A stretch of 64,000 nt of DNA from Alphaproteobacteria bacterium (GCA_900768875.1 CAAGEP010000003.1:333298-397297); one strand, 5' to 3'; positions 38,025-40,644 are shown, counted from the stretch's first letter. Program-made: numbers and translations. Notes: generated from the sequence alone by a model not told the origin.

Positions 38025-38198
38025 TGTTCCAACCTTTTGATTTCGTTTATACGGCTTTTAAGTTAATTTTTGATTTTTTTCTTGACGGATGCGTTCTTTT
38101 TTTACTATCCTGAGAAAGTAATTTTTCGGCAAGTCCTTTATCGGCTTGCAAATCCTAAAGACCACCTTCGGGTGGTCTTAGTTGTATCGGAGAACCGT

Positions 38199-39053
38199 GT
38201 GGTTAAAATTTGCTACATCGACGAATCGGGGGATTTGGGAACTTTGCCCGTTGTGGAAAATCCCGACGGCAACCACCAGCCCGTTTTGGCAATCTGCGGC
38301 ATTTTCATCGACCACGAATGCCTGTACGATCTGACTCACGATTTCATCGGGCTGAAATACCGCTACTATCCGCATTTGAACTATGAAACCGACAAATACC
38401 TTGACCGCATCATCCCCGAAATCAAAGGTGCCGACTTGCGCCGCAACGCCATGCGCGGCGGACATCGCGTCCAGCGGCACGCCATCGGATTTCTGGACAG
38501 AATCGTCGATTTGTTTTTCAAATACAATATCCGCATCGTCGGGCGCATCTGGGTCAAAGTCCCCGGCGAACCGTTCAACGGCAAAGCGGTTTACACTTCG
38601 TCGATTCAAAGCATTTACACCTACTTTGACAACTATTTGAAAGAACATGACGATTTCGGTTTTTGCGTCGCGGACAGCCGGGACTATATAAAAAACATCA
38701 ACGTTTCTCATTCCGTTTTTACGCAAAAATTCCGCGCTTTGCACCCGCTGTATCAAAACATCGTCGAAATGCCGTGCTTTGGACACAGCAACAATTTGGC
38801 GGGATTGCAGTTGTGCGATATTCTGTGTTCCGCGTTTTTGTTCCCGATTGCCAGCTACGTTTATTGTTCGGACGTCGTGCACAATGTCCATGTCCAGCCC
38901 GCCGCCCTTGATTTAAGGGAACGCTACGGGCACCGCCTGCGCGAACTGCAGCACCGCTTTACCAACAGCGCGGGGTTCAACATGGGCGGAATCGTCGTAT
39001 CCGACCCGCTGCAAAAGAAAAACGCTATCGCCATGTTCAAGGATGTAAAATGA
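38199..39053 (+). CDS. DUF3800 domain protein (possible RNase H-like fold)
   Basis: ~284 aa from GTG 38199 (GGAGAA 4 nt upstream); starts VKICYIDESGDLG, the DUF3800 hallmark; upstream in-frame GTG/TTG alternatives back to 38070. Convergent with a bidirectional terminator at 39053..39080. Confidence 0.6.
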   Translation: MVKICYIDESGDLGTLPVVENPDGNHQPVLAICGIFIDHECLYDLTHDFIGLKYRYYPHLNYETDKYLDRIIPEIKGADLRRNAMRGGHRVQRHAIGFLDRIVDLFFKYNIRIVGRIWVKVPGEPFNGKAVYTSSIQSIYTYFDNYLKEHDDFGFCVADSRDYIKNINVSHSVFTQKFRALHPLYQNIVEMPCFGHSNNLAGLQLCDILCSAFLFPIASYVYCSDVVHNVHVQPAALDLRERYGHRLRELQHRFTNSAGFNMGGIVVSDPLQKKNAIAMFKDVK

Positions 39054-39080
39054 AAAAGCGGAGGATTTTCCCCCGCTTTT
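39053..39080. terminator. bidirectional intrinsic terminator between DUF3800 (+) and basic hypothetical (-)
   Basis: AAAAAGCGGAGG-ATTTTC-CCCCGCTTTT: GC stem with one bulge, A-run 5' and T-run 3'. Confidence 0.55.
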
Positions 39081-39083
39081 GAT

Positions 39084-39872
39084 TTATTTGGCATTTTGTT
39101 TCAACGCCGCAATGATTGCGCCGATTTTCTGTTTCTTTTCGGCGGGAATATCGGGCTTTTCCGACTTTTTCATTTCGGCGGACTTGGCTTTCTTGGGGGC
39201 GACCAGCGGCTTGCCCTTGCCGCGCGTCATGGGAACGCCTTCGGGTCCCGCAAAATACGTCGCGACCGTAATGCCCAACACAGCGGCATCGCGTTCGACT
39301 TCTTTGAAACTTTCTTTGCCCTTCATCCACCTGTTGAACGATTTGAAGACATGTTTCATTTCGGGATACGCCAACAAAGACGCTTTGCCGACGCGAATGG
39401 CATCAACCGCCGCGGGAACGCCCGCCGCCGTGCAAGACGCGGAAGCAATACTCAATGACGCGGAAGTCAAGGTAAACGCGCTTTCCTGTTTATTCTGTTT
39501 GAAATAGCTTAGAATACTTTTGGTTTCGCCGCGTTTTTTGGCTTCGTAAGCGGGCTTTAACAGCGAATACATTTTTTCGCCCGTTTTGTAAGCACACATT
39601 CCGACCAACCCCGGAATACCGAACAGCTGATACGCCAACACCGTGCGCGCCGTGTTTTTAATCGAATCGCGGATTTTTGTGTAAACATAACCGTGTTTTT
39701 CGGTCATTTTCGCATCAAACGCTTTTGCTTTGTCGCTGATACGCTTCAACAGCGGAACAGAGGCGATTACCTTGTCCGTTTTCTGCCCGATTCGTTCAGC
39801 CGCCGCGGTCATTCTCCGCGCCGTTAAAACCATTAAAAGATCAACATTCCGTTTATGAACATTCAGTTTCAT
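39084..39872 (-). CDS. hypothetical basic protein with Lys-rich C-terminal tail
   Basis: 262 aa; no recognisable domain; C-terminal ...KPLVAPKKAKSAEMKKSEKPDIPAEKKQK... tail; start 2 nt after the stop of the upstream acidic gene. Confidence 0.5.
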   Translation of the reverse strand: MKLNVHKRNVDLLMVLTARRMTAAAERIGQKTDKVIASVPLLKRISDKAKAFDAKMTEKHGYVYTKIRDSIKNTARTVLAYQLFGIPGLVGMCAYKTGEKMYSLLKPAYEAKKRGETKSILSYFKQNKQESAFTLTSASLSIASASCTAAGVPAAVDAIRVGKASLLAYPEMKHVFKSFNRWMKGKESFKEVERDAAVLGITVATYFAGPEGVPMTRGKGKPLVAPKKAKSAEMKKSEKPDIPAEKKQKIGAIIAALKQNAK

Positions 39873-39874
39873 CG

Positions 39875-40528
39875 TCAGTCTATCGCATTTAAAAGTTTTT
39901 CATATTCCGCGCGCATTTCGTTTTCGTCCAAAGGTTCCCCCGCTTTATCCATTACAAACAGGGTAATCAGCAAACGTTCCATTTCCTCCAGCAACGTTCC
40001 GAAATACGTTTCTTCGGTTATTTTATCCAAATTTAGACACAAACGCAAGTATGTTTTTAATTTTCCCGCATCGGCGATAGATTCCGCTAAATCCGCCGGT
40101 TTCAAGACGTTTCCGTCATCGTCGATTTGTTCGATTTTCATCATCAAGCCGTATATTTGTCCAAACTTCGGATTTTTGGAAATATCCTGCTTTTCAAAAG
40201 CATCCAAATCGTTCAAATTGCGCTCCAACACTTCGGATGGCACGGGCTCACTGAAATCCAGTCCCGTTTCCCTGTCAAATTCTTTGAGCATCGGCAACAA
40301 TTTGGCTTCCGCTTTTTTGGCGCAAAGCTTTAAATCGCCGTTTTCCGTATCGGAAAAAGCGCGAACAAACGCAAAGAAAAAAGGAACGTCATCCGAATCA
40401 ACAGGATTTTCATCGGTTAAAAAATCGTCCAAGCGCTTTAAAGCCGCCGTTTCCAACGCCGCCAAGCGCGCCGTATCGTTGTGTTCCGCCGCTTTTTTGC
40501 GTTCGGCAATCAAATCCTGTTCGTTCAT
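39875..40528 (-). CDS. hypothetical acidic helical protein
   Basis: 217 aa from MNEQDLIAERKK...; perfect AAGGAGG RBS upstream of the ATG at 40528 (the ORF-track extension to 40642 is rejected); strongly acidic (D/E-rich); lower GC than its surroundings. Confidence 0.55.
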   Translation of the reverse strand: MNEQDLIAERKKAAEHNDTARLAALETAALKRLDDFLTDENPVDSDDVPFFFAFVRAFSDTENGDLKLCAKKAEAKLLPMLKEFDRETGLDFSEPVPSEVLERNLNDLDAFEKQDISKNPKFGQIYGLMMKIEQIDDDGNVLKPADLAESIADAGKLKTYLRLCLNLDKITEETYFGTLLEEMERLLITLFVMDKAGEPLDENEMRAEYEKLLNAID

Positions 40529-40598
40529 GGCTTTGCCTCCTTGTTCTTTTTTATATAGCAAATTTGGCGGCGGTTTTAAAGTATTCTTTCCGGCACGC

Positions 40599-40626
40599 AA
40601 AAAAGCCCGCGTTTCCGCGGGCTTTT
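40599..40626. terminator. bidirectional intrinsic terminator (PFOR transcript end / island boundary)
   Basis: AAAAAA-GCCCGCG-TTTC-CGCGGGC-TTTT: perfect 7-bp GC stem, tetraloop, A-run and T-run on either side. Confidence 0.8.
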
Positions 40627-40644
40627 CCGTTATAGCACTCAAGC

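Follow-up and report, generated by a model that had tools for sequence, protein, structure and literature searches.

Proteins of the DUF3800 family are predicted to adopt an RNase H-like fold (PMC10910872) and have been described as defence-linked (PMC10910872, PMC13594972). Their genes are widespread and turn up repeatedly next to Cas12 and Cas13 loci, retrons and mobile elements. The CRISPR-associated representatives combine the RNase H-like fold with a link to non-coding RNAs and defence (PMC10910872, PMC13594972, 10.64898/2026.08.25.746378). Eleven unrelated structured RNAs were reported in 2017 beside DUF3800 genes, in either orientation, and the authors put forward no functional hypothesis for them (PMC5737381). 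Rfam 15 holds at least DUF3800-I and DUF3800-IX (PMC11701678). The locus analysed here lies in a 64,000-nucleotide (nt) stretch of DNA from an Alphaproteobacteria bacterium (GCA_900768875.1 CAAGEP010000003.1:333298-397297), hereafter the window. Between bpt and PFOR, at about 38070-40640, the window carries a DUF3800 gene on the + strand and, convergent with it, two genes on the - strand that encode an acidic and a basic protein. A first-pass annotation, made from the sequence alone, had taken the three genes for one horizontally acquired module. The segment is instead two independent units, which lie side by side in this organism and its closest relatives alone: a DUF3800 gene led by a conserved structured RNA, and an obligate acidic/basic gene pair. 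The probability of this explanation as a whole is put at about 0.6.

Results and discussion

Structure and covariation of the RNA

Set against the spacers of three distant orthologues, the spacer upstream of the DUF3800 gene proved to share with them a two-hairpin element directly ahead of the start codon. Its first stem differs in sequence between them but keeps its pairing. Eighty DUF3800 loci were collected from metagenomes by protein similarity only, and 42 upstream segments were aligned with MAFFT without fitting to the structure, with 500 shuffles as the control. In this structure-blind alignment 91.1% of the cells are paired versus 80.7% in the shuffles, none of which reaches the observed pairing values, and pairing drops to 27-50% when the partners are slid by 1-3 columns. 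Double-sided changes occur in 15 of the 18 pairs. RNAalifold finds the second stem, P2, with 9 of its 11 pairs compensatory.

The covariance model built from the alignment (R1) has a single match in the window, 62.8 bits with an E-value of ~2e-15, a rough figure since the E-values come from a short calibration. It identifies 63 distinct strong sites in DUF3800 loci. At these sites P2 is 98.8% paired (10 of 11 pairs compensatory) and the first stem, P1, is 86% paired (7 of 7), giving 17 of the 18 pairs in all; the loci come from metagenomes and are phylogenetically related, and the cell counts overstate the number of independent events. P2 contains 44 G-U cells and no A-C cell. The structure is therefore read on this strand and acts as RNA.

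The first-pass annotation had recorded a hairpin at 38158-38181 and passed over it for want of a T-run. The hairpin exists and is stem P2 of the conserved RNA, an instance of how a feature set aside in a first read can be the most informative one. Many copies of the RNA also start with AGCAAC..GCUA just 5' of P1 (first 13 columns of the A6 alignment; for example, L110 1414-1426), which may be a further small conserved element or a transcription-start context.

Association with a DUF3800 subfamily

The association was counted at 69 protein-anchored loci with 150 nt or more of sequence ahead of the DUF3800 gene. The motif is present at 68 of them, in the sense orientation as a 5' leader at 61 and inverted at seven. 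In the sense copies a median of 6 nt separates the end of the conserved 3' tail (UUGUUUCUGG, with the Shine-Dalgarno sequence) from the start codon. The inverted copies lie 56-74 nt upstream of the gene with structure and tail intact. No conserved open reading frame (ORF) is found downstream of them, and the idea that they serve a second gene was rejected. One (L095) is followed by a terminator-like hairpin, and TTGAC boxes analogous to the promoter predicted in the window were read by eye upstream of some of the inverted copies (for example, L097). In the window, that predicted promoter would set the transcription start at ~38118, the 5' end of the motif.

The motif is not confined to chromosomes. 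It precedes DUF3800 on a 4.55-kb mobilisable ColE1-like Klebsiella plasmid, whose annotated genes include no evident cargo other than DUF3800, on a 15-kb Acinetobacter pittii plasmid and on a 14-kb Thiothrix plasmid. Among six viral contigs it precedes DUF3800 in four, with weaker matches in the other two. Nowhere else in the window does the motif occur, nor does it occur at the other searched loci without DUF3800, including all other acidic/basic loci searched. The named examples of the DUF3800 subfamily that carries it belong to Alpha- and Gammaproteobacteria and Capsulimonadaceae. Of the results obtained here this RNA has the greater value, being statistically solid, very widespread and present in culturable bacteria.

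That the + strand ORF encodes a DUF3800 protein, as first annotated, was borne out by a PF12686 match that spans positions 1-147 of the 149 in the profile (56 bits, where the cut-off is 21; E-value 1e-14). Its start is not at 38070 but at a GTG codon further downstream that is also used in the public gene calls (Table 1). The N-terminal motif YIDESGD occupies residues 6-12. An alignment of 37 DUF3800 sequences contains 56 invariant residues, among them D8, E9, D69, E74, D159, H171, H196 and D207. These acidic and histidine residues fit a metal-dependent RNase H-like enzyme and may have a catalytic role, judged from sequence conservation. Homologues form 434 clusters at E <= 1e-3, and the best 120 of the 434 are 52-96% identical; few named homologues, from Sphingomonadales and Capsulimonadaceae, stand among the matches listed.

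At some environmental loci the DUF3800-RNA module lies ~200 nt from the 3' end of a transfer-messenger RNA (tmRNA) gene (93 bits at L098), and one locus has a tRNA gene close by. The stretches concerned are L098 1-180 and 386-464, L088 1023-1151 and L080 2492-2573. Genes for tmRNA and tRNA are classic integration sites, and their proximity hints that the module arrives at such loci on integrative elements.

Relation to described DUF3800 RNAs

A search of Rfam 15 with cmscan found no DUF3800 family at E <= 10 in the window region or in a 141-nt segment of the top-scoring locus, and none in 20 whole loci at E <= 0.1. No Rfam 15 family of any kind matches the motif, even with lax filters. The motif could nonetheless correspond to one already published, among DUF3800-II to -XI, but lacking or poorly modelled in Rfam, a possibility with a real, though minority, share of the odds. 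Otherwise it appears to be a twelfth DUF3800-associated RNA, an undescribed member of a known phenomenon.

Two units with separate distributions

The distribution of the acidic/basic pair was surveyed by a protein-anchored scan of one genome per GTDB species. The basic protein occurs in 24 species, all uncultured Alphaproteobacteria of human, horse and ruminant guts, and in 24 of 24 its gene has that of an acidic homologue beside it in the same orientation. Adjacency of the pair to DUF3800 and PFOR is confined to the three closest loci (L029-L031). Relatives further away have the pair beside rpsF-rpsR-rplI-dnaB, argG-argH or other genes, without DUF3800. A near relative, UBA2903 (L032), is instructive. 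Its RecG and Mfd are 95% and 96% identical to those of the window, and its pair (76% and 89% identical) is placed between coaD-ppiB and recG. Nucleotide homology with the window is limited to 40531-39083, which are the two coding sequences. Solitary DUF3800 orthologues are found beside rpsI-rplM in another gut alphaproteobacterium (73% identical), beside gatCAB and elsewhere. One of the three closest loci, L031 (CAVCSV010000034.1), was deposited as Limosilactobacillus gorillae; its PFOR is 99% identical to that of the window, and the label is most likely due to bin contamination.

The single horizontally acquired module of the first-pass annotation thus does not hold, as the pair is without DUF3800 in all but the closest relatives. 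The first unit would span 38075-39083 and consist of a promoter, the 76-nt RNA and the solitary DUF3800 gene, in a self-contained arrangement. The second would span 39084-40598, a two-gene acidic/basic operon limited to uncultured gut and rumen Alphaproteobacteria.

The acidic/basic pair

The strongly acidic and the basic product of the - strand genes had been described correctly, as had their lack of recognizable domains: neither protein has a match in Pfam, NCBIfam, PADLOC or PHROGs. Both families are tiny, with 39 (basic) and 36 (acidic) clusters in 5.8 billion sequences, and a profile search of 1.84 billion representatives gave 35 matches. All named matches come from metagenome-assembled genomes of Alphaproteobacteria.

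The basic protein contains a conserved helical core (residues ~55-222) with 47 invariant residues and the motifs YTKIRDS.KN..RT, CAYKT.EK, RVGKA and RDAAV.GIT..TYF. The core ends in PMTRG.GKP (PMTRGKGKP in the window). A disordered Lys-rich linker follows at residues 217-243 of the window protein. The C-terminus is a short basic amphipathic peptide, mostly ..hydrophobic..IK.KK.GR and commonly ending in GR, which reads IGAIIAALKQNAK in the window protein and is kept across otherwise unrelated tails. Distant members are much longer, and several add Pro-rich spacers and a C-terminal domain with EF-hand-like DxNxDGxIS or thrombospondin-type-3-like repeats. Fold and profile searches gave no specific relative, and a profile search of solved structures returned nothing below an E-value of 0.7.

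Several candidate assignments were rejected. Member-wise Pfam scans of both families yielded noise only; the recurrent hit to ATP19 (14 of 39 members, E ~0.01) is due to a hydrophobic, Gly-rich helix. The basic protein was also rejected as a classical polytopic membrane protein, with a maximal Kyte-Doolittle value of 1.26-1.36 in the window protein and all loops basic, so that an alternating membrane topology does not fit. An apparent homology of the basic protein with a ~2700-aa (amino acid) ORF, seen through a 2766-aa match (P0095), is a low-complexity artefact of Ser/Ala/Gly repeats.

The acidic and basic proteins are an obligate pair: their genes are always neighbours and, in the window, translationally coupled, and distant homologues have the two proteins fused. 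In the window the acidic stop and the basic start form the junction TGAcgATG with a gap of 2 nt. Profile alignment with hhalign matched the acidic family to the N-terminal part of P0107 (91%, E-value 1e-6) and to the N-terminal parts of P0099 (56%) and P0108 (58%), both at an E-value of 1e-4. In all three the acidic-like region directly precedes the basic domain, which makes them fused homologues. Paralogue expansions exist, and one locus (L020) has a basic-acidic-basic arrangement. That the two proteins work as a complex is indicated jointly by the fusions, the 2-nt coupling, the arrangement at L020 and the adjacency in all 24 species. Some species have the order basic then acidic.

Fused homologues of 863 and 780 aa are located at L053 (4540-7839) and L054 (2792-7872). 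They are preceded by proteins of 1099, 1070 and 618 aa without a Pfam domain, a context that gave no functional clue. At least the 1070-aa protein seems to contain a stretch that by eye resembles the start of the basic domain (RIAQKTEK...GLAVLGAYRTYEAYK). The large proteins of L053 and L054 resemble paralogues arrayed in tandem, in other gut bacteria with a GC content of 36-45%.

Of the functions considered for the pair, a chaperone is ranked most likely, followed by a cytoplasmic scaffold and then by a toxin-antitoxin-like module. By analogy with known chaperone-client pairs, the acidic protein might tentatively be regarded as the dedicated partner or chaperone of a basic helical-bundle protein that acts, or is targeted, through its tail and C-terminal peptide. 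The acidic helical protein would keep its partner soluble or inactive, an assignment of low confidence. The basic protein would act through the disordered linker and the conserved basic peptide, which may serve for docking or as a signal for targeting or secretion.

The scaffold reading, by which the pair is a clade-specific organiser associated with the nucleoid, granules or the membrane and built like FtsZ or SSB from core, linker and docking peptide, is doubtful, if not far behind the chaperone. It accounts for the core-linker-peptide build, with linkers of very different length and composition across the family, for the Lys-rich tail of the window protein, for the strongly conserved core and for the clade-wide presence among housekeeping genes. 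However, the EF-hand-like and thrombospondin-type-3-like Ca-binding motifs and the Pro-rich spacers of the distant members suggest an extracytoplasmic location, one strain lacks most of the basic gene, and the fold and profile searches revealed no homology to any known scaffold.

Whatever its function, the pair is a clean case of a clade-specific, obligately paired and occasionally fused family in uncultured Alphaproteobacteria of human and animal guts, whose biology is almost unstudied. If the chaperone reading is correct, the pair would represent a new family in these bacteria, of effector or envelope proteins that bear a tail and are served by a chaperone.

Possible function of the DUF3800-RNA unit

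Their co-occurrence suggests that the DUF3800 protein would bind the RNA. In the leader arrangement, binding would be coupled to translation of the protein's own mRNA; since the Shine-Dalgarno sequence lies inside the conserved tail, the protein would thereby control its own translation as well. Inverted copies would instead yield the RNA as a small transcript of its own. These stand-alone copies speak for more than a cis switch: the RNA would be a partner of the enzyme acting in trans, whether as cofactor, substrate or sensor.

The alternative that the motif is only a cis-regulatory leader of DUF3800, such as a riboswitch, thermosensor or attenuator without a direct relation to the protein, is considered unlikely. 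The gene's own strand carries the motif at 61 of 68 loci, and both the short distance to the start codon, with the Shine-Dalgarno sequence in the conserved tail, and the predicted transcription start at the 5' end of the motif are what such a leader would show. It does not explain the seven inverted loci, which keep structure and tail at 56-74 nt from the gene with no conserved ORF behind them, and an either-orientation pattern has also been described for other DUF3800 RNAs (PMC5737381). The two simple hairpins, moreover, offer no obvious ligand pocket.

Found on chromosomes, small plasmids and some viral contigs, the module is an accessory element. Its position as the sole evident cargo of tiny plasmids and its presence in some proviruses suggest, from gene content, that it may act in conflicts between mobile elements and their hosts. 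The accessory or defence character proposed in the first-pass annotation is therefore retained in part: DUF3800 is linked to mobile elements and is nuclease-like, but the undescribed partner attached to it is an RNA and not the neighbouring proteins.

The boldest form of this reading is a minimal two-component RNA-protein system in which the RNA, a new widespread class, is a required cofactor, sensor or substrate, with the pair as a new chaperoned effector or envelope family; it is viewed as rather improbable in full. If true, such an RNA-nuclease system could serve in competition between mobile elements or in anti-phage defence, and the decade-old puzzle of the DUF3800 RNAs would be directly testable through the 4.5-15 kb plasmids of culturable Klebsiella and Acinetobacter. 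The near-obligate tie of the RNA to one subfamily and its two arrangements offer a tractable system for addressing what DUF3800 proteins do and whether they need the RNA.

Selection, mobility and ancestry

The order rnhB-PFOR-acidic-basic-DUF3800-bpt-yjbQ-ppa is identical in the sister species UBA6411 (L030), with 91% nucleotide identity to the window over 9 kb. The rates of synonymous substitution (dS) of the three genes against UBA6411 are 0.44-0.66, inside the range of their neighbours (0.20-0.75). The ratios of nonsynonymous to synonymous rates (dN/dS) are 0.195 for the acidic, 0.075 for the basic and 0.035 for the DUF3800 gene. All three genes are under purifying selection. The flank-like dS argues against recent acquisition. 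The first-pass annotation had named conserved presence of the same genes at the same locus, with host-like composition across the genus, as an observation that would speak against an island, and this is largely what was found, in two sister species and under purifying selection. The exact proteins are present on many human-gut metagenome contigs, including Hadza and Nepali samples.

The region has a GC content of 0.479, compared with a sliding mean of 0.518 (standard deviation 0.028), and 9.8% of equal-sized windows are as low or lower. A mild dip thus underlies the AT-rich island first described, whereas the flanking genes (bpt 0.508, PFOR 0.550) do not reach 57% on both sides. Among the three genes, DUF3800 (0.505, with a host-like 0.667 at third codon positions, GC3) and basic (0.496) are unremarkable; the acidic gene, at 0.440, is the sole outlier, ~2.4 standard deviations under a crude gene mean and the lowest among the genes of the window. 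Values of 0.44-0.45, below that of the region itself, occur at 16338-18731 and 45000-47000, and composition therefore varies this much elsewhere in the window. No tRNA or tmRNA gene was found within the 64 kb, flanking repeats are at chance level only, no integrase is present among the called genes within ~10 kb, and Pfam finds no integrase-family domain in the three genes. The segment is not a recent insertion, and in this lineage vertical inheritance of the DUF3800 module dates back beyond the divergence of the sister species.

Strain comparison defines the boundary on the bpt side, which had been left undefined and can be placed at 38075. Strains L002, L010-L012, L016, L017 and L019 are rearranged, with a breakpoint 124 nt upstream of the DUF3800 start. 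Beyond 38075 other strains carry the ~2700-aa ORF (no Pfam domain) followed by yajC-secD in place of bpt-yjbQ-ppa, and all sequence from 38075 towards the DUF3800 gene moves together with it. On the other side of rnhB (45426-48764) strains differ as well: the window and L001 carry a 1112-aa autotransporter there (compared with L010-L012 and L016-L019, positions 1-5400), other strains carry several DUF6782 proteins and an N6_N4 methyltransferase with a RAMA domain, and further strains carry SHOCT/DUF7424 genes.

A toxin/immunity function of the pair, of the kind raised as a possibility in the first-pass annotation, is disfavoured. A toxin-antitoxin-like or abortive-infection module, in which the acidic protein neutralises a basic toxin active on membranes or binding nucleic acids, would be in keeping with the acidic-then-basic order and the 2-nt gap, the opposite charges, the moderately hydrophobic Gly/Ala-rich helices of the basic protein, a chromosomal position that varies between close species, the faster evolution of the acidic protein and the paralogue expansions. 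Against it stand the adjacency throughout one clade, outside which word-indexed and profile searches did not find the pair, the lack of copies in the plasmid and phage collections, the dN/dS of 0.08-0.2, the size of the proteins with no DNA-binding antitoxin domain found in Pfam, the fused single-chain homologues, the lack of a PADLOC match and the reversed order in some species; such a module is accordingly given little credence.

A single defence or toxin-immunity island made up of all three genes and gained by horizontal transfer is the reading that survives least, largely refuted and very improbable: the mild GC dip, with the acidic gene lowest among the genes of the window, the terminators on both sides, the strain breakpoint at 38075 and the ties of DUF3800 to defence systems and mobile elements (PMC13594972), with copies on plasmids and viral contigs, are outweighed by the lack of co-occurrence of DUF3800 and the pair past the closest relatives, by dS equal to that of the flanking genes with dN/dS of 0.035-0.2, by the host-like GC3 of DUF3800, by the search of PADLOC-DB v2, which gives no family at E <= 1 for any of the three proteins, by the lack of tRNA genes or flanking repeats in the window and of integrase-family domains in the three genes, and by the failure to find the pair in plasmid and phage collections.

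The two-unit explanation has its own difficulties, which are taken together here as weighing against it. On the RNA side these are the rough E-values, the relatedness of the metagenomic loci, the chance that the motif is a published one and the reliance on co-occurrence for the proposed binding. On the side of the pair, the AlphaFold2 (AF2) models, which show long helices in the basic core and a nine-helix bundle or alpha-repeat in the acidic protein, are of medium confidence (predicted local distance difference test, pLDDT, 74 and 80, respectively). Kyte-Doolittle maxima of ~1.2-1.9 across the basic family, below 1.6 in most members and no higher than 1.36 in the cluster of the window protein, make its hydrophobic helices borderline for insertion. 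Strain L016 has a deletion from codon 67 of the basic gene through DUF3800, fused onto the ~2700-aa ORF. Finally, a chaperone fused to its client is atypical for secretion chaperones.

Features of the locus

The coordinates are collected in Table 1. The perfect hairpin next to PFOR that had been annotated as a terminator was confirmed by reading. It separates PFOR from the acidic/basic operon in a spacer of 116 nt, and the Rfam scan gave partial matches to terminator parts of leader families on both strands. Of the signals proposed for the acidic gene itself, the AAGGAGG ribosome-binding site is present, but no sigma-70-like promoter upstream passes the scan. Between ppa and yjbQ, a 124-aa ORF without a Pfam match (36535-36909, + strand) is called in every related strain contig and is probably a real conserved gene.

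Table 1 Positions of features at the bpt-PFOR segment of the window.
Feature	Position	Strand	Basis or remark
bpt	37311-38024	-	ATE_N and ATE_C domains
AT-rich spacer, 174 nt			Between bpt and the DUF3800 gene
Collinearity breakpoint among strains, bpt side	38075		blastn of window 36001-45100 against L010, L012 and L002
Predicted sigma-70-like promoter (TTGACG, 18-nt spacer, TATCCT)	38082-38111	+	Consensus scan, 9/12 matches
DUF3800-associated structured RNA, 76 nt, two hairpins	38116-38191	+	Covariance model R1
RNA stem P1	38129-38149	+	
RNA stem P2	38155-38181	+	
RNA linker and conserved 3' tail			Linker AAAU; tail UUGUAUCGGA, holding the Shine-Dalgarno sequence of the DUF3800 gene
DUF3800 gene, 284 aa, GTG start	38199-39053	+	Pfam PF12686
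Bidirectional terminator hairpin between the convergent DUF3800 and basic genes	39054-39080		12 pairs, scan match on - strand; AAAAGCGGAGGATTTTCCCCCGCTTTT; inside a 30-nt spacer
Basic gene, 262 aa	39084-39872	-	Isoelectric point (pI) 10.06
Acidic gene, 217 aa	39875-40528	-	pI 4.41
AAGGAGG ribosome-binding site of acidic gene	40536-40542	-	Direct reading; 7 nt before ATG
PFOR terminator hairpin GCCCGCG-TTTC-CGCGGGC	40599-40626		Direct reading; flanks A6 and T4
PFOR gene	40645-44199	-	

Comparison with known systems

The pair resembles type II toxin-antitoxin systems in having two coupled genes with the acidic product encoded before the basic one. It differs from them in that both proteins are much larger, no known toxin or DNA-binding domain was found, conservation is clade-wide without plasmid or phage copies, and fusion proteins exist. 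A parallel, by analogy only, is provided by VirE1-VirE2 and by the type III class II chaperone-translocator pairs (IpgC-IpaB). In these a small acidic helical protein is likewise encoded directly upstream of, and coupled to, a partner with hydrophobic helices and a positively charged C-terminus, and on reading the sequences neither protein of the present pair has an evident Sec signal peptide, a further likeness. Unlike those pairs, the acidic and basic proteins share no sequence or fold similarity with them, have fused homologues and occur in reversed order in some species.

The DUF3800 protein shares its Pfam domain with the CRISPR-associated members of the family, TPR-DUF3800 with Cas12a2/Cas12a3 and Csx32 of the Cas13 CASK loci. 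In contrast to these, it is a solitary protein of 284 aa without a TPR domain, and no Cas- or CRISPR-related family is present among the called genes within ~10 kb. The OMEGA systems (TnpB/IscB with omega-RNA) offer an analogy only, in that a nuclease of RNase H/RuvC fold stands beside a conserved structured non-coding RNA and is often mobile. The OMEGA RNA overlaps the 3' end of its gene, whereas the RNA described here is short, lies 5' of the gene or inverted, and shows no guide-like variable segment. The closest systems are the DUF3800-I to -XI motifs (Weinberg et al. 2017, PMC5737381; Rfam RF02969, RF02968 and others), which like the present motif are structured RNAs adjoining DUF3800 genes on either strand. 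Compared with those modelled in Rfam, the present RNA has a simple two-hairpin design of ~76 nt. Compared with the group as a whole, it is mostly an mRNA leader with the Shine-Dalgarno sequence inside its conserved 3' tail, and it is tied to one well-conserved DUF3800 subfamily of ~280 aa.

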